In this document: one piece after another, positions 36,110 to 46,006 of the stretch
Layout of the letters: each line of letters opens with the position of its first letter
Position numbering within the stretch: position 1 is the stretch's first letter
Assembly: GCA_029775855.1 (NCBI GenBank)
Contig: JARVJZ010000001.1
Location: forward strand, 160,001-224,000
Direction: 5' to 3'
DNA: 64,000 bases
From: Nitrososphaeria archaeon
Lineage (GTDB): Archaea; Thermoproteota; Nitrososphaeria; Nitrososphaerales; JAAOZN01
The notes under the pieces: model-generated
What the model was told of the DNA's origin: nothing
Database searches by the model: none
What the model saw: only the letters and a program-made list of their open reading frames with translations
Made by a program: the position numbers and the translations under genes

Positions 36110-36694
36110 CTATATAACCCACTTGTAAGATATTTTGGTAGGGCTGTGCTTTTGGGCTTGTGCTACTATCGAAGGGTCTACTCCTTCTAGGTTTACAGTT
36201 TCTTCCACAATCTCTAAATTGTTTACAGTGTAGCCTTTGGCTTCTGCTAGCCTTTTAAGCTCATCCATAACCATTCGCAGCTCTCTTCCGCTTCTCGGTC
36301 TAAAGCCGTTTTTTAATATTGACCCTAGGTAAATCTTAACTTCAATACCCTCTTTAACCTTCTTAATTTCATGGTCTGTTGCTGCATATCTATGAATTAA
36401 CTCCTCTATAAACGGTAGCTTTTCATCTTTGGCTGAAGGGTGTGTGAATACGCACTTTATGGCTGTGACCCTTTCGGAGCAGCTGAAGAAACCTAAATGT
36501 ATGAGTAGGGCTCCTTCTAGCATCATGCCGATTTTAACCGCACCAACAATCCTTACAGGTTGATCTTCTGAAATGAGCATTCTTCGCGTTAACTCTGGAG
36601 GCACCGTTATCACTAAGCTGTTACCGCTTCTCCTCACTGTAGCGTCAAAGTAAATTGGATCATATACCCAGCTCGTCTGCTCTGCCATGCGCAT
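36110..36694 (-). CDS. AbrB/MazE-type DNA-binding domain protein with extended C-terminal domain
   Basis: VRRSGNSLVITVPPEL swapped-hairpin motif followed by ~140 aa unassigned alpha/beta region. Confidence 0.7.
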   Translation of the reverse strand: MRMAEQTSWVYDPIYFDATVRRSGNSLVITVPPELTRRMLISEDQPVRIVGAVKIGMMLEGALLIHLGFFSCSERVTAIKCVFTHPSAKDEKLPFIEELIHRYAATDHEIKKVKEGIEVKIYLGSILKNGFRPRSGRELRMVMDELKRLAEAKGYTVNNLEIVEETVNLEGVDPSIVAQAQKHSPTKISYKWVI

Positions 36695-37184
36695 TTAAGG
36701 TATCATTAGAAGACATAAATAATTTTGCTGTATTACATACCTTAAGATAGTCTTCTTCGCCTATCTTCACTATGCCGCCTTGAAGGTACACAAATGGCTT
36801 CTGACTATTTTTGATGAAGGTTAAGTTGCCGTGTATACTCTTAAAAGGTAAAGGTTTAGGCCAAACTTCAATATCCGCTAGGTCAACTATGTAGCTATAT
36901 TTATCTAACAATGCCAGACACAATCTCCTCTCAACATCAGACACAAGGTAGGGGTTTGAATCTATAACACCACATCCAGTAAATAATGCTGGTCGATTCT
37001 TCTTTTTACTGCTTACGTAGAAGATGACCTTATCCCCTTTACTCAACTTTCTTTTATGCGCTACATATCTAGTCAGCCCCCAAAGCCTCTTCTTCACCCT
37101 ATCTTCAAATATAGTAAAGGCGTCGATAACAGCCCCACCACAAATATGATCCTTCGCAACAAAGATGTAGTGGTTTACCATCAA
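36660..37184 (-). CDS. EVE-domain (PUA-like) protein
   Basis: LWGL, LSKGDKVIFYV, FTGCGVIDSNPY, LTFIKN, LQGGIVKIGEEDY pattern. Confidence 0.75.
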   Translation of the reverse strand: MMVNHYIFVAKDHICGGAVIDAFTIFEDRVKKRLWGLTRYVAHKRKLSKGDKVIFYVSSKKKNRPALFTGCGVIDSNPYLVSDVERRLCLALLDKYSYIVDLADIEVWPKPLPFKSIHGNLTFIKNSQKPFVYLQGGIVKIGEEDYLKVCNTAKLFMSSNDTLNAHGRADELGI

Positions 37185-37528
37185 CTCTTAACAGAATCTT
37201 CTTCTAAATTAAGTTGACGGATAATACTCTTATCTAAAGCTAATTTTGCTAAACGCTCAAGAGGATTCTTAATCCACAAAAGCCCCGCCACAAAGACCCC
37301 GCTCGTAAAGAAATCCAACCAACCATAAATCCAAGTCAAATCAAAGATGTAAAGTATTATTAATATGCTTGGTCTGAGGGTTAGTAATAGGGAACCTACT
37401 AGAAAAAGGTTCAAGCCACGACTCAGAGCAGAGCCTCTAAAAAGTCTGTTAAAGAAAAAAAATGAGGTAAGGAGGAGTAGAGCGAGTACACCTGAAGCCG
37501 CTTGCACCAATATATCACTCAACTGCAA
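37181..37528 (-). CDS. small membrane protein (~3 TM helices)
   Basis: Three hydrophobic segments; stop overlaps the EVE gene start (ATGA). Confidence 0.65.
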   Translation of the reverse strand: MQLSDILVQAASGVLALLLLTSFFFFNRLFRGSALSRGLNLFLVGSLLLTLRPSILIILYIFDLTWIYGWLDFFTSGVFVAGLLWIKNPLERLAKLALDKSIIRQLNLEEDSVKS

Positions 37529-37552: not shown

Positions 37553-38140
37553 TCACCCGAGGAACATGACAGGCTCCAGAGCAGGCGGAAGTCGTCTAGA
37601 TAATGTAAGCACCGCACCTTTAGGAGGCTTAAGTTCTATCTTAAACTCAGCATTCGCTCGAAGTTCGTCGTCAACTCCATCATTCTTTAAATTAATGAAG
37701 ACCCTATACTTGTCTCCATATTTAAGGTACATGTCGGTATCAGATGTAAAGACCGGTGTTACAGTAGCTTTAGTTCCATCATAGATGTTGTCTTCATGCT
37801 TGTTTGCGCTTGTCCACGTTATTGCGAGCTTACCTTGAGTTAGATCTACTGGGGACTTGCCTGCTGAAAGTTTTATGATGAAGCTAACGTTATGTAGATA
37901 GGTGGTGTTGCTTTTAGCTATTACAGCTCCATCTATCTCCATAACTGATGATGCTTCTTCTATGCCTGCCGCTATGACTTCTTGGCTCTTTTGTGTTGAT
38001 TGAAATCCTATGTTCAGCACCGTAAAGGCAAATGCTGAGGCGACGATAACGAAGGCGATGAGGATTATTGCTGTCTCTAGACCAGTTAGCCCCTTACGTC
38101 TATGGTTGCATCCCTCTTTTTTAGAGCTTGCTCGCATCAT
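37553..38140 (-). CDS. arlB: archaellin
   Basis: Class III signal peptide RRKG|LTGLETAIILIAFVIVASAFAFTVL; GKSPVDL; FKIELKPPKGAVL. Confidence 0.95.
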   Translation of the reverse strand: MMRASSKKEGCNHRRKGLTGLETAIILIAFVIVASAFAFTVLNIGFQSTQKSQEVIAAGIEEASSVMEIDGAVIAKSNTTYLHNVSFIIKLSAGKSPVDLTQGKLAITWTSANKHEDNIYDGTKATVTPVFTSDTDMYLKYGDKYRVFINLKNDGVDDELRANAEFKIELKPPKGAVLTLSRRLPPALEPVMFLG

Positions 38141-38173
38141 ATCGGTCGGTTGTAGTATAGATATACCATATAA

Positions 38174-38202
38174 ATAAGTTTTATGTCGTATTTAAAACTT
38201 AT
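38174..38202. promoter_or_regulatory. inverted repeat ATAAGTTTTA-N9-TAAAACTTAT in the divergent arlB / V4R-arl promoter region
   Basis: Perfect 10-bp arms at 38174-38183 and 38193-38202, extending 3 more bp after one mismatch. Confidence 0.55.
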
Positions 38203-38204
38203 AT

Positions 38205-38717
38205 ATGTGTGATATAGATAATGATGATGGGGTAGAAATGCTTGGGCAAATAGCTATGTTAGTAGATAAAGAAAGTTTTATGCAGCGGTCTATACAAGAA
38301 GTTGATTCAAACTATTCAAACAGTAAATTTATTGACACACTACAGACAGTAATACCAAATCTATTAGGACCTATTGGTGCTGCAGTACTTTTTTATCATA
38401 TAGGTGCAAAGTTGGTTGACAACATGTTTGAAGAATGTGCCGGAGACCTACATGAGCTAAAACGCTCAATAATTGTTCTCTTCGCTAAAAATAGTTTCGG
38501 TGTAATAGAGATAGAAGATAACAAATGCCTGAGTCGACTTAACATTTGCACCAAGCCTCTACCATTGGCTGGAAGTAGTTCAATAGGTTGCTACTTTGTT
38601 AGGGGTATCTTCCAAAGGTATCTAAAGCTTGTTAAAGGATTTGATGTAGAAGTTGAGGAAAGTCGTTGCGTATCTAAAGGTAGCCGCTTCTGTGAATTTA
38701 GGGTAAAAGAGGTTTGA
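38205..38717 (+). CDS. stand-alone V4R (4-vinyl reductase) ligand-binding domain protein
   Basis: GCYFVRGIF..EVEESRCVSKGSRFCEF Zn-site signature; start may be ATG 38238. Confidence 0.85.
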   Translation: MCDIDNDDGVEMLGQIAMLVDKESFMQRSIQEVDSNYSNSKFIDTLQTVIPNLLGPIGAAVLFYHIGAKLVDNMFEECAGDLHELKRSIIVLFAKNSFGVIEIEDNKCLSRLNICTKPLPLAGSSSIGCYFVRGIFQRYLKLVKGFDVEVEESRCVSKGSRFCEFRVKEV

Positions 38718-38723
38718 ACAACT

Positions 38724-39134
38724 TTGAAACAACAAGCTTTAGTTGATGAGATAAAAAGCATTTTAGCTAATCTCAAGGCTGAAGTTGGTGCTGAAATATG
38801 TGCATTATATGACAAGAAAGGACTACTCTTTGGAATCGGCTACCGGGCTGAGGCTGCAATTTTATCAAAAGTCACACAGATAGTCATATCAGCAAATAAT
38901 ATTTTTGAAAGTAGCAGAGTAGGTTGCTTAGAGTCCGCACTTGTTGCAACAGAGCAAGCAGGTATAATTATTAGTAGGGTATTTAATTCACCAACTACAT
39001 ATCTATGCCTAATTCTTCCAAGCAGTGATGTTCTTGGTCTTGCATCACTTGGGGTAAATGCTGCCAGAGTAGAAATTACTTCGTTGTTAAGTAGACTTCT
39101 AGATAAAAAGAGTGAGGGTGAGCATTTACTATGA
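38724..39134 (+). CDS. Roadblock/LC7 (MglB-like) domain protein
   Basis: ILANLKAEVGAEICALYDKKGLL..LESALVATEQAGIII..LGLASL pattern; 136 aa. Confidence 0.7.
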   Translation: MKQQALVDEIKSILANLKAEVGAEICALYDKKGLLFGIGYRAEAAILSKVTQIVISANNIFESSRVGCLESALVATEQAGIIISRVFNSPTTYLCLILPSSDVLGLASLGVNAARVEITSLLSRLLDKKSEGEHLL

Positions 39135-39769
39135 GCAGCGAAGTTTCCGAGCTAGAGAGGCGAATAAAATCTATTGAAAAAGAGATACAAGAGATCAGAG
39201 AGCCTCTCTATACAACACTCACCGATTTACGCAGCACAATCGCCGAGCTCGAAAACCCATTTAACTATATATCCAAAATGATCGATAGTATCGATCTTAA
39301 AGAGAAAAAAAAGGAAGGCAAAGAAGCTATAGGCAGTATTAAGGTAGGTGAAGCTAAAGACAATAATAAAGATGGTGGTTTAGATGTATCTGCGAAAGAA
39401 TCGTCCTCATCCACCAATTTACACACAGGATTTAAGATGGATTCTGAGCAATGGTATTACCAGTTCAACGTACTTGTTGTCTCAAACCTACTTCTTGAAA
39501 TCTTCGAAAAGGATGAACTTAAGAAGGTTCTTGCAGAGTATGTCAAAGACGGTTGGGTAAGTAGAGAGCTAGCAAAAACTATTGAAGAAGCTGTCGATAA
39601 ACTAACGGTTAATAGAAAAGTCTCACAAATAGACAACGAAGTGTTAGAGTCGCATCTTTTTGCACTATATATCCTCTATAAGCTCTCCAATCAACCTAAT
39701 GATCCAGTTTTGCCTTTTCTACTAATCTTGTTGAATCGCCTAAGACGCGCTAATAATGCTATTAAATAA
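39131..39769 (+). CDS. ArlC/D/E-like archaellum switch protein (ArlC-type coiled coil + ArlD/E-type domain)
   Basis: Coiled coil ending ELENPF; C-terminal VLAEYVKDGWVS..ESHLFALYILYKL resembles the FlaD/E YY.IGWIS..DH..SL.FI..L consensus. Confidence 0.65.
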   Translation: MSSEVSELERRIKSIEKEIQEIREPLYTTLTDLRSTIAELENPFNYISKMIDSIDLKEKKKEGKEAIGSIKVGEAKDNNKDGGLDVSAKESSSSTNLHTGFKMDSEQWYYQFNVLVVSNLLLEIFEKDELKKVLAEYVKDGWVSRELAKTIEEAVDKLTVNRKVSQIDNEVLESHLFALYILYKLSNQPNDPVLPFLLILLNRLRRANNAIK

Positions 39770-39775
39770 GGAGGT

Positions 39776-40279
39776 TTGCTAGAGAAGTTGGCTACAAGCA
39801 GCGTAATTTCCGAAGTTTACATAACATTAGCTGTAGTTATTGCGATTTCCATCTTCTCAGCTACAATCTTTGGGAGCCTACAGAGGGTGGCAGATGCGGA
39901 GAGGGAGAAAACAGTAGATTTGAAGAGAAAGCTGGGTACAAACGTGGAAGTGGTTTTTGCAGCGCAATATAATGCCACTGCAGTTAAAGTGTGGATTAAG
40001 AATACTGGTGTTGAATCAATAAGACCTTCACTTATCAGTTCTAACTCTGATCTCTTCTTCGGTCCACAAGGCTTGTTTACAAGGATAAGTTATAACTCAA
40101 CGTCTCCACCAACTTGGCTCTACATATTAGTAAATGATATGGACAACGACTCGGTATGGGACAGCTCTGAAACCATTGAAATAACTTTGAATAACGGTTC
40201 AATACTGCAGCATGGTGACTACTACATACGATACGTGACATACAATGGTGTTTACAGCGAATATACCTTTACCATCTAA
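39776..40279 (+). CDS. arlG: archaellum stator protein ArlG
   Basis: SSVISEVYITLAVVIA N-terminal TM; VWIKNTG, DLFFGPQG, WDSSETIEI, YNGV. Confidence 0.88.
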   Translation: MLEKLATSSVISEVYITLAVVIAISIFSATIFGSLQRVADAEREKTVDLKRKLGTNVEVVFAAQYNATAVKVWIKNTGVESIRPSLISSNSDLFFGPQGLFTRISYNSTSPPTWLYILVNDMDNDSVWDSSETIEITLNNGSILQHGDYYIRYVTYNGVYSEYTFTI

Positions 40280-40292
40280 GGAAGGTGGTAAA

Positions 40293-40844
40293 GTGGCTGG
40301 CTTTGCTGGTTTAGCAGCGTTCGTCTTGGCGTCTTTTATTCTCCTATGGGTAAATCTCATAACATTAGAGGAAAGTTATGCGAACTATTCAATAGAAATG
40401 GAAAGTATTTTGAAGAGGATAAAGCTTGAAGCACAAACTGCAAAGGAAGCATATGCTCTCTCTGCAATCAACAAAAGTTTGTCAACAATCTCAGTTAATG
40501 TAACAAATGTTGGTGCAAAGTCGCTGCCAGTTAAGAGCTTCACTTACTGCGATGTTGTGGTCGCCTTCTTTGATCTTAATATAGGTAGCTATTCTTCATA
40601 CTGGCTACCATATGGTAAGCCATCTGATCGCGGATACTGGTATGTTGCAGCAATTTATACTGGCGCGGTTCTAGGAGAGAGCATCAATCCATTTAATTTA
40701 ACGAAATTAACTGGGCATCTTGATCCCGGTGAGACGATGCTTATTATCGCTGTGGTGCCACAAGGTAGTTTAGTTGATGTTGATAGTGCGGTATCTGTGC
40801 TCTTTGTATCGTCTTCTGGTGTTGAGGTGTTGGAGGTTGGGTAG
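40293..40844 (+). CDS. arlF: archaellum stator protein ArlF
   Basis: GTG start MAGFAGL + TM; VNVTNVGAKSL, DVVV, INPF, LDPGETM. Confidence 0.78.
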   Translation: MAGFAGLAAFVLASFILLWVNLITLEESYANYSIEMESILKRIKLEAQTAKEAYALSAINKSLSTISVNVTNVGAKSLPVKSFTYCDVVVAFFDLNIGSYSSYWLPYGKPSDRGYWYVAAIYTGAVLGESINPFNLTKLTGHLDPGETMLIIAVVPQGSLVDVDSAVSVLFVSSSGVEVLEVG

Positions 40845-41424
40845 TTTCTCTTCTCTTCTTGTTTTTGGTTTAGTATTCTTGCTAATAGTTAACGTAGTTC
40901 CATTAAGCTACTATTTGAATGAGGCTAGATTAGATAAAGGTAAGATACCTTCAGAAATTCTTTTGGTTAACAGCCGGTGCTTCTCGCGTCTCTATTTAAC
41001 AGGCTTCGCAGTAGAACATGGACACAATCTTACTGTCTCAAGAGTTTCTTTTAATGTGACATATTTTGGTGAAAGACCTGTTAGAGCGGCTGAGCTGTGG
41101 TATGCTAACTTGATCACAGCTTATGCACGGATTATTAGTGGTTCCAATGGGGAGCTTAAGATACAACCTACTGTAAAAAGGATACCTTATACAAAGATAC
41201 TATCTTCAGATACGGCGTGGACGATAGATGTTGTTTACGGTGATAATTTAGAACCGTTAAACAAGATGTTAGAGAGCGGAGCGTTAAATAGTGGAGAGAC
41301 CGCATCGATTAGAATCGAATTCGCCTCAGATGATTCACCCTGCTTTAACCCGCAGAGTGCAGGCTACTTCTATGTTCTATTAGACTTCTCTAATGGTGCG
41401 AAAGGGGTTATTTCGATTAAGTGA
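40837..41424 (+). CDS. second ArlF-like protein
   Basis: TTG start MGSFSSL + TM; FNVTYFGERP, LEP, LNSGETASI, SNG; parallels the motifs of the upstream ArlF. Confidence 0.6.
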   Translation: MGSFSSLLVFGLVFLLIVNVVPLSYYLNEARLDKGKIPSEILLVNSRCFSRLYLTGFAVEHGHNLTVSRVSFNVTYFGERPVRAAELWYANLITAYARIISGSNGELKIQPTVKRIPYTKILSSDTAWTIDVVYGDNLEPLNKMLESGALNSGETASIRIEFASDDSPCFNPQSAGYFYVLLDFSNGAKGVISIK

Positions 41425-41436
41425 GGTGAAGCATCT

Positions 41437-42147
41437 GTGTCCCAACCTAAGCTCATCAGTTGGTACAATAATGAGCTTCAACAAAAGTTAGGTGAAATCC
41501 CTGTACCGACTTTAATGCTCATCGAAGGTTCTAATGATACTGGTAAGAGTGTGTTTGCTCAGCAGCTGACTTATGGTGCATTGCGCAGCGGTCTGAAGGT
41601 TTCATACATCACGACGGAGAATATGGTTAAAAGTCTTATCTCACAGATGCTAAGCCTTTCTTTTGATGTTCGACAATATTTTCTAAAAGGTGAGTTAAAG
41701 ATATTTCCATTACATGTTGAAAACATCGATTGGAGGGAAGAGATTGCTAATCTTTTCTTAGAAGTTATTTCAAGCTACCTTAACAATAGATGCGCCGCGA
41801 GTGTGGTTATAATAGATTCATTAACCTATATGATAACTTATGCTAATGAAGAAGGTGTCTTAACATTCTTTTCTAGCTTAAGAAACATATGTGATAAGCA
41901 GCGTAAAACAGTGATTCTCACTGTACATCCATATGCATTTTCCCAAGAGCTTCTGATCAGAGTGAGATCGATATGTGATGGGCATCTTATCTTAGAGATC
42001 AAGACTGTTGGTGACAAAATAGTTAGAATGCTTTTTGCCTCTAAGCTTAGAGGTGTTATCGGCGGTTCAGGTTCTGTAATAGTTGCATTTGAAGTCGATC
42101 CAGCTTTTGGAATAAAGGTGATTCCTTATTCGCAGGCTAGGGCGTAA
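41437..42147 (+). CDS. arlH: archaellum KaiC-like ATPase ArlH
   Basis: IEGSNDTGKS, YITTE, IIDSLT, TVHP, RSICDGHL, FEVDPAFGIKVIP. Confidence 0.95.
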   Translation: MSQPKLISWYNNELQQKLGEIPVPTLMLIEGSNDTGKSVFAQQLTYGALRSGLKVSYITTENMVKSLISQMLSLSFDVRQYFLKGELKIFPLHVENIDWREEIANLFLEVISSYLNNRCAASVVIIDSLTYMITYANEEGVLTFFSSLRNICDKQRKTVILTVHPYAFSQELLIRVRSICDGHLILEIKTVGDKIVRMLFASKLRGVIGGSGSVIVAFEVDPAFGIKVIPYSQARA

Positions 42148-42150
42148 AAT

Positions 42151-43869
42151 ATGAGTGCAAACAAGAATATCTTCTACGATTTGCTGCCAACAGACTTTAA
42201 TGAACTTATAAGAATAAAGCTTCACTTAAGACAGTATGTAAGTAAACTTGAAGAAGATCGCATCGACACTCCGTCTTGGTTTTTAACGCTTGACAAGAAG
42301 ATGAATAAAGAAAAAGTTAATCTGATCTATCCTGTCTCTGAAGATGTCTTTATTCACATCCTGCGGCAAGAAGGGATGGAGAGGGCAAGGTATACGATTA
42401 TCGAGCCTACCACGGGTCACGATTTAAGAAATATCGTAAATGTGTTAGAGAATATGTTTGCATTTAAGATGAATGAAGAGCATATATACAGGAATTTAGA
42501 AGAGAAGAAAAAGGTATTAAAGAATCTTATTGATAACACTTTAAAGGTTGATCCGTCGATAAACGAGCTCGCATCATTCCGTGTTGTAGGGAAAGGTAAG
42601 GATTCGATAGTTTTAGTTGGAGAAAAGACAAAAAATCTTCTTGAATATCTGCTCGTGAGAGATAAGATAGGTATAGGTCTACTTGAACCGTTGATAAAGG
42701 ATCCATACATCGAAGATATATCTTTTAACGGTGTTGGTCCTGTATTTGTTGAGCATAAAATCTTCAGCAGCTGCCTCAGCAGTTTAAGGTTTGACGACCC
42801 AGAACTATTAGATGAATATATCAAGAGGTTGGCTGAGCGAGTAGGTCGACCAATAAGCTATAGAAACCCTATCGTGGATGGCACTTTACCAGATGGCTCA
42901 AGAATAAATATCGTGTACGGTAGTGACATCAGCAAACACGGGACGAACTTTACTATTAGGAAGTTTTCTAAAGTGCCCATCAGCATACTTCAACTATGCC
43001 TATGGAACACTATAGGTTATCTTCCAGCGGCTTACCTCTGGATGCTTCTAGAATTCGGGATAAGCGTCTGGGTTTGCGGTGAAACCGCTTCAGGCAAGAC
43101 AACAACCTTAAACGCTCTATGTGCCTTCATAAACCCAACCGCCAAGATTGTTAGCGTCGAGGATACACCAGAGGTCACTGTGCCTCACGAAAACTGGATC
43201 AGAGAGGTTACTAAGGAGAGTGAGGATAGCGAAAGTAAAATCGATCTTTTTGCTTTGCTTAAATCAGCATTAAGGCAGAGGCCGAATTATATCATAGTAG
43301 GTGAGATACGAGGGCGTGAAGGAAATGTGGCTTTCCAAGCCATGCAAACAGGGCACCCCGTTATAGCTACATTCCACGCATCTACTGTGCAAAAACTAAT
43401 TCAACGCCTTACTGGCTCGCCTATTGAAGTTCCTAAAACCTACATAGACAACATAGGTGCTGTGATCATACAGAGTGCTGTAAAAGTTCCTAAGACTGGT
43501 AAGATTGAACGGCGCGTCTTAAGTGTGAATGAAATATTGGGATATGACTCTTTAGAAGACCGTTTCAACTATATCGAAATATTTAATTGGGATCCTCTTA
43601 CAGATACCTTCCTGTTTAGAGGCGAAGGTACAAGCTACCTTCTGGAGAATAAGCTTGCAGTCTTTTATGGCTACTCTAAGCGTGAGGTAAGAGCAATCTA
43701 CAATCATCTACATCTAAGGGCTGAGCTGTTAAAACTCCTTGCAGAGGCTGGTATCACAGATTATTTTGATCTATGGTACACTTTGAAGACGATAAAAGGG
43801 CTTGGAATCGAACGCGCCTTTGAATTGATGCGACAAGGGCGTCTACTGAAGGTGGTAAAGCGTATATGA
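42151..43869 (+). CDS. arlI: archaellum motor ATPase ArlI
   Basis: DPYIEDIS, LPDGSRIN, GETASGKTT, LRQRPNYIIVGEIRG, TGHPVIATFHA. Confidence 0.96.
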   Translation: MSANKNIFYDLLPTDFNELIRIKLHLRQYVSKLEEDRIDTPSWFLTLDKKMNKEKVNLIYPVSEDVFIHILRQEGMERARYTIIEPTTGHDLRNIVNVLENMFAFKMNEEHIYRNLEEKKKVLKNLIDNTLKVDPSINELASFRVVGKGKDSIVLVGEKTKNLLEYLLVRDKIGIGLLEPLIKDPYIEDISFNGVGPVFVEHKIFSSCLSSLRFDDPELLDEYIKRLAERVGRPISYRNPIVDGTLPDGSRINIVYGSDISKHGTNFTIRKFSKVPISILQLCLWNTIGYLPAAYLWMLLEFGISVWVCGETASGKTTTLNALCAFINPTAKIVSVEDTPEVTVPHENWIREVTKESEDSESKIDLFALLKSALRQRPNYIIVGEIRGREGNVAFQAMQTGHPVIATFHASTVQKLIQRLTGSPIEVPKTYIDNIGAVIIQSAVKVPKTGKIERRVLSVNEILGYDSLEDRFNYIEIFNWDPLTDTFLFRGEGTSYLLENKLAVFYGYSKREVRAIYNHLHLRAELLKLLAEAGITDYFDLWYTLKTIKGLGIERAFELMRQGRLLKVVKRI

Positions 43870-45395
43870 CTCTTAATTTAATAAGCACCGTTGCCCTTAA
43901 AGCCAAGTCAGAAGGTAAAAGTGTAAGAGTTAAAAGTAGAGCCGACTTCCCCCTTCTAATACTACTTTTATATTTGGCTGCTTTCTCAAATCAAGGTTTG
44001 CACTATATTTTAGATGCCCTCAAGAAACCGATTACTCCGCTAAAAGGGTTCGCAACATTATTTATGAAACTCGACATCATGATCAATAAATGGAATTACA
44101 GGCAAGATTACGCGCTACAAATAGCCTCAAATATGAGTGACAACAGAAGCCTCTCACAGTTCTTGCTTAGGTTGTCCCAAGCAATTAATGTGGGCACATC
44201 CTTCAAAGACTTTATGAAGATAGAGTATACAAAGTTTATTATTATAAGTCAGAAGGAGCATCAGATACTAATAGATAAGCTGAGATGGCTTAGTGAAGCT
44301 TACTCCGCAATGATCACAGCTGGAACTGTGCTCTCAGTTTCTATGATTGCTGTTTCAACACTTTTAGGCACAGCTTCAGCTAACCAGAGTTTGCAGCTAA
44401 CTCTTGTTGGGGTTCCCACCGCAGCCTCAGCTTTAGTAGTTCTTATCGCGAGGGCTGGTCTAAAATATGAAACAATAACCGATTTAGACGCTAAACCATA
44501 TAAGTTAACCCTACTCTCAAGATCTGGGAAGATTCTCTTCTTTATCTTAGTCTTTCTCACACCAATCATCTTTTATGTATCTCATTTGTTTGGTAGCAGC
44601 TTTTGGGGTTGGCTTGGTATGGCTATCAGCGGCTTAGCCTTGCTATTATTCGGCAAAATCGCCCTTAGAGAAATAAAACGCATAAAAGGCTTAGAAAATC
44701 AGTTCATGCTCTTTATCAAGGTCTTAGGTGAAGCAGCATCGGCTACCGGCACGCTAAATCAAGGACTTATACTAGTCTCACATAGCGAATTCGGCAAGCT
44801 GTCAAACCACATAAAGAAGCTTGTTTCTAAGCTTACAATAGGGTTTGACAATGAAGTCTCGTGGCTGAATTTTGCAGCTGAAACCGGTAGCAAACTCATC
44901 TCTGATTTTACACAAATACTTCTATTCTCTGTCAAGATAGGCGGAAAGATAATTGAAACATGCCAAACTATATCTGACTGGATGAATGAGGAGCTAAGTA
45001 GAAGAAGTAGGCGTGAACAAGCTTCAAACTACCTAAAAGGTCTGGTCTTTCCTATTCAAGGCACACTCATAGCGATACTGACTATGACAAGTGTGTTAAT
45101 AGAGATCTTTAATAGATTCGCAGCATTCTCTACAAACATTCAAGTAAGGTTCGTGAACCCAATAGATCTTCAGCTACTACTATTCTTCAACTTTATACTT
45201 CTCTTCGCTTTAGCAATAATAAGTGCTTCTGCAATATACTTTACAGAAGGTGGTTCTCTATTTAACCTCTACTATAATTTGGGTCTTCTTCTACTAATCT
45301 CTGGTCTCGGTGTGATTCTTGTCCAAGCCTTTACCTTTAACATTCTAGGCTTGTTTTCAGAACTCGGCTCTAATTTAGGCACGGTGATACCTTGA
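43866..45395 (+). CDS. arlJ: archaellum membrane platform ArlJ
   Basis: Multi-TM protein with two T2SSF-like cytoplasmic domains, directly after arlI. Confidence 0.85.
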   Translation: MTLNLISTVALKAKSEGKSVRVKSRADFPLLILLLYLAAFSNQGLHYILDALKKPITPLKGFATLFMKLDIMINKWNYRQDYALQIASNMSDNRSLSQFLLRLSQAINVGTSFKDFMKIEYTKFIIISQKEHQILIDKLRWLSEAYSAMITAGTVLSVSMIAVSTLLGTASANQSLQLTLVGVPTAASALVVLIARAGLKYETITDLDAKPYKLTLLSRSGKILFFILVFLTPIIFYVSHLFGSSFWGWLGMAISGLALLLFGKIALREIKRIKGLENQFMLFIKVLGEAASATGTLNQGLILVSHSEFGKLSNHIKKLVSKLTIGFDNEVSWLNFAAETGSKLISDFTQILLFSVKIGGKIIETCQTISDWMNEELSRRSRREQASNYLKGLVFPIQGTLIAILTMTSVLIEIFNRFAAFSTNIQVRFVNPIDLQLLLFFNFILLFALAIISASAIYFTEGGSLFNLYYNLGLLLLISGLGVILVQAFTFNILGLFSELGSNLGTVIP

Positions 45396-46006
45396 AGGCC
45401 ATCACTATAGCAGCCATCTTGACTTTGAGCACAGTCTTATCGTTAGGCTCAGCTCTGCTACTGGCGCTAAATGTGACAGGAATCTATACTCCAACATCAA
45501 CCATCTATATCTTACTGCCCTACATGTTAGCAGTTCCCCCCTCATACTTTGTGTTAAGAACATTTTTAGAAGCCCTAACTCCACAACCAAAGGTAGAAAG
45601 TAAAAAAGAAGTCCTAGAAGTTGAAAAACCAAAATCTATAGCGTCTGAAACTATAGAAGTGCCTAAGCCAGTGCCCCAAGCCGAAGGTGTAAAGATTGAT
45701 GAAAAGAAGTTAGAAGAAAAAGAAGTGGAGCAACCTAAGAAAGAGGCTCCTCCACAACCAATCCAAGATACTAACACCATCGTAGAAGAGCAACTTAAGA
45801 TAGAGCCGTCAACATCAAAACAAGAAGTCCCGTCCCCCACGCAAACATCTGAAGAGAATGCCTCTGTGTCGAACGAAGATAAAGTGATAATCTTAACCCC
45901 AATTCTCGAAGAACTTAAATTACTGCAAAATGAATTAAACGGTTTAAAAACGAGATTAAAAATTCCAAAACTAGAGAAAACAGTAAAAGAGAAGTCGGAA
46001 GAATAG
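45392..46006 (+). CDS. membrane-anchored protein: 2 TM, Glu/Pro/Lys-rich linker, C-terminal coiled coil (ArlX-like topology)
   Basis: Hydrophobic N-terminus, low-complexity middle, ILEELKLLQNELNGLKTRL heptads; overlaps the arlJ stop. Confidence 0.6.
   Translation: MKAITIAAILTLSTVLSLGSALLLALNVTGIYTPTSTIYILLPYMLAVPPSYFVLRTFLEALTPQPKVESKKEVLEVEKPKSIASETIEVPKPVPQAEGVKIDEKKLEEKEVEQPKKEAPPQPIQDTNTIVEEQLKIEPSTSKQEVPSPTQTSEENASVSNEDKVIILTPILEELKLLQNELNGLKTRLKIPKLEKTVKEKSEE

Follow-up and report, generated by a model that had tools for sequence, protein, structure and literature searches.

The control of archaella in archaea without a chemotaxis (Che) pathway is poorly understood beyond the transcriptional Arn network of Sulfolobus. 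An archaellum (arl) operon of an uncultured Nitrososphaeria archaeon raises this question in a particular form, because its first two genes encode a V4R protein and a Roadblock/LC7-superfamily protein. The operon lies in a 64,000-nucleotide stretch of DNA (C1:160001-224000, hereafter the window) from a genome of 1.507 Mb in 6 contigs that is 98.44% complete. What might such a pair do at the head of a motor operon? The answer that we favor, with a rough probability of 0.45, is that a widespread module of V4R, Roadblock, and nucleoside triphosphatase (NTPase) proteins was recruited to the archaellum operon, where it would act as a ligand-responsive accessory of the cytoplasmic face of the motor.

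A V4R-Roadblock pair heads the archaellum operon

The open reading frames (ORFs) of the run 38205-46006 all lie on the + strand and were found exactly where the original prediction had placed them. The order is V4R, Roadblock, ArlC/D/E-like, three ArlF/G-like genes, ArlH, ArlI, ArlJ, and a gene for a transmembrane (TM)/coiled-coil protein, with arlB divergent upstream. The features at the head of the run are:

38141..38204, no strand: divergent intergenic region, 64 bp, AT-rich (about 97 bp with the V4R start at 38238), as read from the sequence
38205..38717, + strand: V4R protein, stand-alone, probable Bet3/PoxR fold, 170 amino acids (aa), soluble, with a PF02830 match
38724..39134, + strand: Roadblock/LC7-superfamily protein, 136 aa, TTG start, soluble, identified by profile and Atlas-model matches
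39131..39769, + strand: ArlC/D/E-like protein, thaumarchaeal counterpart of ArlX/ArlCDE, 212 aa, soluble

The tight packing that had been described for this run was also recovered. The V4R stop at 38717 and the Roadblock start at 38724 are separated by a 6-nt gap, and the Roadblock stop and the ArlC/D/E-like start have the ATGA at 39131-39134 in common. There are 4-nt overlaps between arlI and arlJ and between arlJ and the TM/coiled-coil gene, and the remaining gaps in the operon are 12 nt or less. This spacing makes it likely that the run from V4R through the TM/coiled-coil gene is a single transcript. The 64-bp intergenic region presumably holds putative promoters for both arlB and the operon. 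A scan for sigma-70 promoters and intrinsic terminators gave counts at the level of shuffled sequence, and the sigma-70 model is inapplicable to archaea. Near-identical DNA is present in six runs labeled hot springs metagenome (X1-X6). Contigs from an RNA library (X7) overlie arlB, V4R, Roadblock, and ArlC/D/E-like with partial coverage of the locus, whose uncovered stretches carry no information, and one of them (39073-39313) bridges the Roadblock/ArlC/D/E-like junction. These contigs are a weak hint that the head genes are expressed.

Identity of the V4R protein

The assignment of the first gene to the V4R family is borne out both by its sequence and by its predicted fold. The protein scores 35.2 bits against Pfam PF02830, above the gathering cut-off of 31 (37 bits in a six-frame search of the genome), and its C-terminal part matches the NCBIfam family MsvR (E 2e-7). 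No TM segment was predicted. The start may be at 38238 instead of 38205, giving a protein of 159 aa, because the orthologues begin at the MLGQ methionine.

An AlphaFold2 (AF2) model of the protein (pLDDT 77, pTM 0.71) has the two-layer alpha/beta fold of solved V4R/Bet3 structures. When this model was searched with Foldseek, PoxR (5fru), MopR (5kbg), and MJ1460 (2oso) were matched with E from 2e-4 to 5e-3 and TM-scores of 0.45-0.54; DmpR-type phenol-sensor domains, BcsD, and H-NOX were matched in the same range. TRAPP chains of the Bet3 family (7u05_F, 3cue_E, and 2j3r) were also matched, with TM-scores of 0.45-0.51 for Bet3/TRAPPC3.

MsvR is a redox-sensitive regulator that works via cysteines. 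The window protein is like the phenol sensors PoxR, MopR, and DmpR and like MsvR in its structural or NCBIfam matches and in its cysteines conserved near the predicted pocket; it is unlike them in that its V4R domain stands by itself, joined to neither a DNA-binding nor an AAA+ output domain. The cysteine motif, GC...C-x7-C, is kept in 7 of 9 aligned arl-linked V4R homologues, with a fourth cysteine in some. By motif, and not residue by residue, this cluster resembles the zinc site of Thor-TRAPPC3 and PoxR as given in the accessible text of PMC10933270.

Identity of the Roadblock protein

The second gene had been read as a Roadblock protein. This identity held through a family profile and a structural model; the part that did not hold is a direct Pfam match, since Robl_LC7 (PF03259) did not match the window protein at E≤0.1 or anything in the genome at E≤1. 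A profile built from 15 Robl_LC7 proteins that pass the Pfam threshold matched the window ORF with E 1.2e-10 (39.6 bits), and this was the single match among 5578 genome frames. The same profile matched the copies from G007, L016, G002, and f22, relatives that are introduced below, with E from 6e-18 to 2.5e-8. The arl-head protein is thus the sole Roadblock detectable in the genome. In the reverse search, a profile restricted to arl-linked homologues was run against 1.84 billion representatives and found 30 proteins. Twenty-nine of these were scanned, all except P0001, which is the cluster of the query family itself; 17 pass Pfam Robl_LC7, 4 are sub-threshold, and 1 is unrelated.

The ESM Atlas model of the protein (pLDDT 0.72, pTM 0.70) aligned to a cluster that is 100% Robl_LC7 with a TM-score of 0.88 over 134 residues, and has the alpha-beta-beta-alpha-beta-beta-beta-alpha fold of Roadblock proteins. 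Our own AF2 model, made from an 8-row alignment, had a pLDDT of 40 and was unusable. A search of the Protein Data Bank (PDB) with a profile of 5 close sequences gave non-significant matches to MglB (E 0.6), and a word-indexed homologue search returned 4 close relatives and nothing beyond. The profile of the wider family matched MglB chains 6h5b, 6izw, and 3t1q, as well as LAMTOR2/3.

As a measure of constraint, we compared ratios of nonsynonymous to synonymous substitution (dN/dS) among close relatives. The values were 0.045-0.086 for Roadblock, 0.033-0.094 for ArlH, 0.10-0.15 for ArlC/D/E-like, and 0.15-0.23 for V4R. These low values indicate that the three head genes are under purifying selection and are constrained, real genes.

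A sub-group of archaeal Roadblock proteins has a conserved C-terminal tail, L-x-x-L-E/Q-x-x-P-L/I-F/Y-K/R-x-L/I, which the window protein does not have. Tail-bearing members include L012 6183-6728, L147 1498-2013, P0007, P0010, P0012-P0014, P0022, and P0023. The tail recalls either the helix at the C-terminus of MglB or a peptide that binds a membrane or a partner.

The third gene is a divergent ArlC/D/E homologue

The proposal that the third gene is related to ArlC/D/E was supported, although the copy in the window is itself below the family cut-off. The protein has an N-terminal coiled coil with an ELENPFNY motif, of which ELENPF is invariant, and a C-terminal helical domain. It has no TM segment and sits between the archaellin and the arlF/G genes. 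Against Arch_fla_DE (PF04659) it scores 15.5 bits where the cut-off is 21. Among its orthologues, 8 of 14 match this family at E≤0.05, and those of G007 (21.3 bits) and L028 (23.9 bits) reach the cut-off. The Pfam ArlX family (PF24151) gave no match to the window protein and matched 1 of 14 orthologues (E 0.049).

Comparison by hhalign with proteins in the equivalent position in Methanosarcina gave a probability of 98.1% (E 9.5e-14, 184 columns), and with those of Sulfolobales/Desulfurococcales a probability of 98.2%, with an ELENPFN-type motif in common. This test is partly circular, because the comparison sets were picked by phmmer hits to the query. The assignment agrees with a statement in the accessible part of PMC4858521 (Makarova, Koonin and Albers 2016) that FlaX and a thaumarchaeal 'unknown gene' are divergent forms of FlaC/D/E. 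A 2022 review, as far as its available text goes, calls the thaumarchaeal ArlX-equivalent, or cytoplasmic ring of the motor, unidentified (PMC8978795).

Two known systems are close to this protein. As with the euryarchaeal switch, in which the soluble ArlC/D/E proteins receive CheF/CheY according to the same portion of PMC8978795, a soluble ArlC/D/E homologue follows Roadblock; unlike that switch, the window genome has no CheF, CheW, or methyl-accepting chemotaxis protein (MCP), and the homologue is a single fused C+D/E-like protein under the Pfam cut-off. As with the crenarchaeal ArlX ring, the gene occupies the place between arlB and arlG and the proteins align as given above; unlike ArlX, it has no N-terminal TM segment and no Pfam ArlX match, and a separate TM/coiled-coil gene follows arlJ.

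Conservation of the linkage in relatives

The original prediction had counted a lack of conserved linkage in related genomes among its refuting conditions. A synteny survey found the linkage conserved: it recurs within the genus, in a second family, and in a genome of another class, and Roadblock alone recurs in another order. Within the genus, the order arlB<>V4R-Roadblock-CDE-G-F-F'-H-I-J-TM/coiled-coil, where <> denotes divergence, is repeated unchanged in G003 and on two contigs of G002. In a second family of the order (f5), G007 has arlB<>V4R-MinD/ParA-Roadblock-ArlCDE-like-G-F-F'-H-I-J-TM/coiled-coil. In a third family, G024 has arlB<>V4R-131-aa ORF-ArlCDE-like-arlG. We considered the 131-aa ORF as a Roadblock protein, and did not count it because its N-terminal resemblance is 9 bits and the Pfam-passing profile gave no match. 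The divergent arrangement with arlB is kept in G002, G003, G007, and G024.

Outside the order, G401 from another class (identical to G795; L016 = L164) has arlB<>V4R-Roadblock-170 aa-ArlCDE-like. In another order of the class (f22), G426 and G444 have a tail-bearing Roadblock alone, divergent from arlB-ArlCDE-like. A Pelearchaeum metagenome-assembled genome (MAG; L073) has V4R directly before ArlCDE-like, without Roadblock. Loci L019 and L021 have a V4R-like protein without the cysteines before ArlCDE-like, which a leave-out profile detected with E 5e-5 and 2e-6 (4566 ORFs). The linkage is thus kept through rearrangements of the operon.

Archaella are rare in the order, with an ArlCDE-like gene in 18 of 401 sampled genomes. 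Four of these 18 have V4R and Roadblock, one (G024) has V4R and the unsupported ORF, and one is cut by a contig end.

Two side observations were made on these loci. In G401/G795, the 170-aa protein between Roadblock and ArlCDE-like (L016 6172-6684 = L164 984-1496) belongs to no family. In G002, contigs C29 and C30 (L006 and L007) carry two diverged copies of the locus, with V4R 72% identical between them; the genome has 8% contamination, and therefore these are probably two strains binned together.

V4R-Roadblock modules away from the archaellum

We then considered whether the pair is confined to the archaellum. A profile of tail-bearing Roadblocks was run against 401 sampled Thermoproteota genomes and matched 19. 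This gave 25 loci besides the window's own. From these, 67 ORFs were passed through Pfam; ORFs under about 100 aa were excluded, as was L161, whose layout repeats that of L160. Within 1.5 kb of Roadblock there was a V4R gene at 6 loci (4 genomes), a MinD/ParA gene at 4, a KaiC-like ATPase gene at 4, and a small Arf/Ras-like GTPase gene at 7 (three of them KaiC-GTPase fusions). At 13 of the 25, none of V4R, MinD, GTPase, or KaiC was found in this range. L153 is a MinD-V4R-Roadblock-GTPase cluster and L162 a GTPase-V4R-Roadblock cluster. L164 (= G795) is the sole arl locus among the 25. Because V4R-Roadblock occurs with an NTPase at loci away from arl, we consider it a module in its own right that stands at the arl head in a few lineages. 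Roadblock and NTPase regulation are the subject of a paper by Koonin and Aravind (2000).

These data also bear on a reading in which the pair is a mere neighbor, only co-located or co-transcribed with arl, and serves another cellular target (a GTPase, a KaiC-like ATPase, or metabolism). It would account for V4R-Roadblock pairs beside unrelated genes, for the 13 loci without any of the four partners, and for the Ras-like GTPase-TackOD1 pair and ACT-V4R gene on contig C3 of the window genome. By contrast, the arl linkage occurs in at least 4 lineages with different gene orders, including one with Roadblock alone beside arlB, and chance linkage is hard to obtain because arl loci are so rare and yet the linkage recurs. 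In addition, the sole Roadblock of the genome appears from the shared ATGA to be translationally coupled to ArlCDE-like. We think it rather unlikely that the pair is only a neighbor.

A different possibility arises from the MinD/ParA gene between V4R and Roadblock in G007 (AAA_31 61.5, ParA 53.1, and CbiA 52.1 bits). The main rival to the favored reading is a positioning module, in which V4R-(MinD)-Roadblock sets the site of the archaellum in the cell, Roadblock is the ATPase regulator or cargo adaptor, and the window lineage is a reduced form that lost MinD. ATPases of the ParA/MinD family have such a positioning role for motility machinery and for chemosensory arrays. The same MinD subfamily as in G007 occurs in the V4R-Roadblock modules L149, L153, and L172 and also heads che operons beside arl in L034 and L026. 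MinD is reported to place archaella in Haloferax in the accessible parts of 10.1101/2020.04.03.021790, PMC11588486, and PMC13705601, and FleN/MinD ATPases are the most abundant regulators linked to archaeal type IV pili (T4P) in the part of PMC4858521 available. The sister-family head is thus like Haloferax MinD4/MinD2 and FlhG/FleN in having a ParA/MinD ATPase. The window operon differs in having none, its genome has no orthologue of the G007 MinD, and MinD stands in the arl head of a single lineage among those seen. We consider a positioning role unlikely.

Small GTPases give a second comparison. Myxococcus MglB is a Roadblock-fold GTPase-activating protein (GAP) that together with the Ras-like GTPase MglA forms a polarity switch for type IV pilus motility. 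Points in common with that system are the genetic link of a Roadblock-superfamily protein to a type-IV-filament motility machine, the place of MglB chains among the best matches of the family profile in the PDB, and the C-terminal helix tail of the archaeal sub-group. Unlike it, the window operon has no GTPase, the partner of Roadblock is V4R, and the window Roadblock is tail-less. A search for an MglA-type partner, which had been advised, found none in the operon and a lone Ras-family GTPase in the genome (C3:219609-220145), adjoining a TackOD1 gene, with an ACT-V4R gene 2.4 kb away; this family was not found in three of the six head-bearing genomes. We rejected a small GTPase as the universal partner of Roadblock because G007, G024, and G401 have no Ras family match.

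Eukaryotic complexes give a third. The V4R model is similar to Bet3/TRAPPC3 of the TRAPP core and the Roadblock family profile to LAMTOR2/3 of Ragulator, and V4R, Roadblock, and an Arf/Ras-like GTPase stand in one cluster elsewhere in Thermoproteota (L153 and L162). The window cluster differs in that it has no GTPase, and in some of the other clusters the NTPase is a MinD/ParA-type protein. In the Asgard strain of PMC10933270, as far as its accessible text states, GTPase genes as a rule lie outside the operons that hold Roadblock or TRAPPC3 genes. We also entertained a reading in which V4R-Roadblock with a MinD/ParA ATPase or an Arf/Ras-like GTPase is an archaeal NTPase switch of TRAPP-core/Ragulator folds, hard-wired to the archaellum in these hot-spring lineages as a ligand-gated, MglAB-like on/off or polarity switch for a rotary type-IV-filament motor, without Che. 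We regard it as unlikely.

In print, related associations are known for T4P. The accessible supplement of PMC4858521 has 16 arCOG02603 rows, some of which may be archaellum loci, with Methanobacterium T4P loci that have Roadblock beside KaiC-like ATPases, and its sections 16 and 17 describe Roadblock arCOG02603 and FleN/MinD ATPases as frequent in archaeal T4P loci. This was the sole relevant source that we found for Roadblock with the archaellum, and arCOG02603 was found nowhere else. For V4R with the archaellum we found no description in a full-text search that had most subscription papers outside its scope, and the available portions of PMC10933270, PMC3149612, and PMC3791482 describe no V4R-Roadblock operons.

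Two further neighborhoods in the window genome were noted. C3:219609-223322 is a second place where V4R stands with an NTPase: the Ras-like GTPase gene (97 bits) overlaps TackOD1 (115 bits) and is followed by a glycosyltransferase-like ORF and ACT-V4R. At C1:224560-225926, shortly beyond the end of the window, an AsnC-type helix-turn-helix (HTH) protein with a weak V4R-like C-terminus is encoded by a gene that overlaps the next one, KaiC (224 bits).

Relation to chemotaxis genes

The original prediction had seen no che genes in the 64 kb and had proposed that V4R as input and Roadblock as adaptor replace Che and drive the ArlCDE/ArlH switch, giving Che-independent taxis. The first observation extends to the whole genome, where CheW (PF01584), MCPsignal (PF00015), and CheF (PF04283) had no match, CheY-like receivers being outside the search. 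As positive controls, the CheF profile matched in 3 archaea and the CheW and MCP searches also matched their controls. CheW was found in none of the six genomes with V4R plus Roadblock or the ORF at the head (G000, which is the window genome, G002, G003, G007, G024, and G401); CheF and MCP were looked for in G000 only.

Replacement of Che would fit this absence, and it would fit the homology of the adjoining protein to euryarchaeal ArlC/D/E, the receiver of CheF/CheY in the accessible text of PMC8978795. However, at least five genomes (G021, G042, G326, G200, and G405) have arl and lack both CheW and the head. CheW was also not found in G403 and G404; completeness figures are not given for G401-G405. 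Conversely, the Pelearchaeum MAG (G402) has a V4R-only arl head alongside CheW/CheA, and in a Nezhaarchaeales MAG (L026 14975-18905) a MinD-CheA che operon stands beside arl with V4R divergent beside it. A Staphylothermus MAG (L034 235-2471) likewise has a MinD-CheY-CheB operon beside arl. Headless archaella without che, a V4R head beside CheW/CheA, and V4R and MinD at a che-arl cluster together indicate that the head does not behave as a substitute for Che, and V4R-Roadblock also occurs away from arl. Temporal gradient sensing, moreover, depends on adaptation or memory, and the pair would provide neither. The lack of Che can be explained without the module, and nothing points to gradient sensing. 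This part of the original prediction was not upheld, and we consider replacement of Che improbable.

Reviews, in the parts available, describe Crenarchaeota as without chemotaxis, yet the L034 and L026 MAGs, both Thermoproteota, carry che operons.

A possible role for the head pair

In the explanation that we favor, recruitment of the V4R-Roadblock-NTPase module to the archaellum, V4R and Roadblock would form a cytoplasmic regulatory pair. V4R would be a zinc- or cysteine-stabilized pocket of the Bet3/PoxR type that senses a small ligand or redox state, and Roadblock a dimeric platform such as those by which P-loop NTPases are regulated or docked. The module (V4R, Roadblock, and MinD/ParA and/or a small GTPase) may have been captured at the arl head in a few lineages, where it would be made together with the motor. 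It would most likely act on the cytoplasmic side as a gate on motor assembly or activity, with the neighboring ArlC/D/E-like ring protein and/or the KaiC-like ArlH as candidate contacts, and the trigger would be whatever occupies the V4R pocket. The NTPase partner could be the in-operon MinD in the sister family, and here ArlH, ArlI, or the lone Ras-like GTPase on C3. A complex prediction for V4R, ArlCDE-like, and Roadblock scored 0.00 against a mark of 0.32 and weighs neither way.

Several observations weigh against this explanation. Among the 18 genomes with an ArlCDE-like gene, 12 have no V4R or Roadblock within 1.5 kb of it and four Caldarchaeum loci are also headless; since the arl operons of most relatives are headless, the head is dispensable for the archaellum. 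V4R-Roadblock pairs also stand away from arl in other Thermoproteota, beside aminotransferase, HTH, and B12-binding genes, and therefore the archaellum is not necessarily the target. In the window version no NTPase gene separates V4R from Roadblock, and its genome matches the G007 MinD at the P-loop level only, with no orthologue. A Ras-family GTPase is found in G000, G002, and G003 and not in G007, G024, or G401 (E≤1e-5). In the Roadblock tree, 12 of 28 inner branches are unresolved and branches are long, so that a single arl-linked clade is undecidable and single recruitment to arl cannot be told from multiple recruitment. The window Roadblock and ArlC/D/E-like proteins are both under Pfam's own cut-offs. 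The X7 contigs are possibly derived from DNA and do not allow a single transcript to be claimed, and any physical or functional link of the pair to the motor is putative.

The same patchiness bears on a structural role, in which the pair adds subunits to the cytoplasmic ring or to a polar scaffold of this lineage's motor and takes no signal input. A structural role would suit the thaumarchaeal ArlX-equivalent that, as noted, has long been called unidentified; both folds serve as scaffolds in TRAPP, Ragulator, and dynein according to the PDB matches, and Roadblock is as constrained as ArlH. On the other hand, the head is patchy even inside the order, the cysteine motif is lost in L019 and L021, and the pair occurs without arl. 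We find a purely structural role very unlikely. Together with replacement of Che and mere neighborhood, it is less likely than both positioning and the favored recruitment of the module as an accessory of the motor.

Other genes of the operon and its surroundings

The remaining archaellum genes are as follows:

37553..38140, - strand: arlB archaellin, Pfam Arch_flagellin (PF01917) 106.6 bits (cut-off 29.5), TIGR02537 N-terminal domain, one N-terminal TM segment
39776..40279, + strand: ArlF/G-like stator-type protein 1, 167 aa, Arch_flagellin 30.6 bits (cut-off 29.5), one N-terminal TM segment
40245..40844, + strand: ArlF/G-like protein 2, 199 aa, true start probably later, one N-terminal TM segment, gene in a conserved position
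40774..41424, + strand: ArlF/G-like protein 3, 216 aa, true start probably later, one N-terminal TM segment, gene in a conserved position
41437..42147, + strand: ArlH, KaiC-like ATP-binding motor protein, NCBIfam PRK06067 FlaH 280.4 (cut-off 194), Pfam KaiC 80.7 bits
42151..43869, + strand: ArlI, archaellum motor ATPase, NCBIfam NF058587 664.9 (cut-off 550), Pfam T2SSE 120.5 bits
43866..45395, + strand: ArlJ, polytopic platform protein, Pfam T2SSF 39.9 (cut-off 25.2), multiple TM segments
45392..46006, + strand: TM/coiled-coil protein, 204 aa, TM segment at residues ~3-33, Lys/Glu-rich coiled coil

ArlF/G-like protein 1 has matches under the cut-off to the NCBIfam families ArlF (E 6.6e-8) and ArlG (E 7.7e-6), and its homologues are present at 55 loci of the set retrieved with ArlI. 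Proteins 2 and 3 have no Pfam or NCBIfam family match; homologues of protein 2 are found at 19 loci, between arlG and arlH, and those of protein 3 at 6. ArlJ scores 211.7 bits against NCBIfam ArlJ/FlaJ, under the cut-off of 400.

The TM/coiled-coil protein had no Pfam or NCBIfam match, and ESM Atlas yielded nothing usable. Because the ArlC/D/E-like protein has no TM segment, the TM/coiled-coil protein could be the membrane anchor, a role that ArlX has in Crenarchaeota. Orthologues lie 3' of arlJ in G002 and G003, and G007 has a 225-aa TM/coiled-coil ORF (L009 653-1330). An ORF after arlJ at L014 5297-6115 weakly matches that of G007 (E 2e-4), and those at L016 13177-13950 and, in Caldarchaeum, L018 13154-13612 are unmatched.

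Several genes near arlB were also noted. A 194/195-aa protein with an AbrB-like 'SLVITVP' motif, recognized by eye and with no Pfam match, is encoded in the window at 36110-36694 (- strand) and at L147 2020-2607 (- strand). Its position near arl both here and in G426, which is from another order, makes it a candidate transcription regulator of the locus. A small hydrophobic protein encoded downstream of arlB (37181-37528, - strand) looks conserved by eye in G007 (L009 10529-10813). The adjacent EVE-domain gene (36660-37184; Pfam EVE 27.1 bits) has an EVE-like counterpart as a neighbor in G024.

Relatives of ArlI with 43-48% identity occur on contigs labeled as bacteria, with Dehalococcoidales, Chloroflexota, and Acidobacteriota-type names (L023, L024, L027, L031, L048, L053, L056, L058, L062, L067, L071, L075, and L078-L081). 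CDE-like genes lie upstream in L027, L031, and L081. Either bacteria have archaellum-like loci here or the contigs were mis-binned.

Significance

The locus supplies two small soluble proteins, conserved at a motor operon, which lend themselves to expression and to direct tests against ArlCDE-like, ArlH, and ArlI. V4R, which is Bet3-like, and Roadblock are the folds that underlie eukaryotic GTPase platforms. A conserved operon pair of V4R and Roadblock, sometimes with a GTPase or MinD, would offer a prokaryotic system in which to study their joint function.

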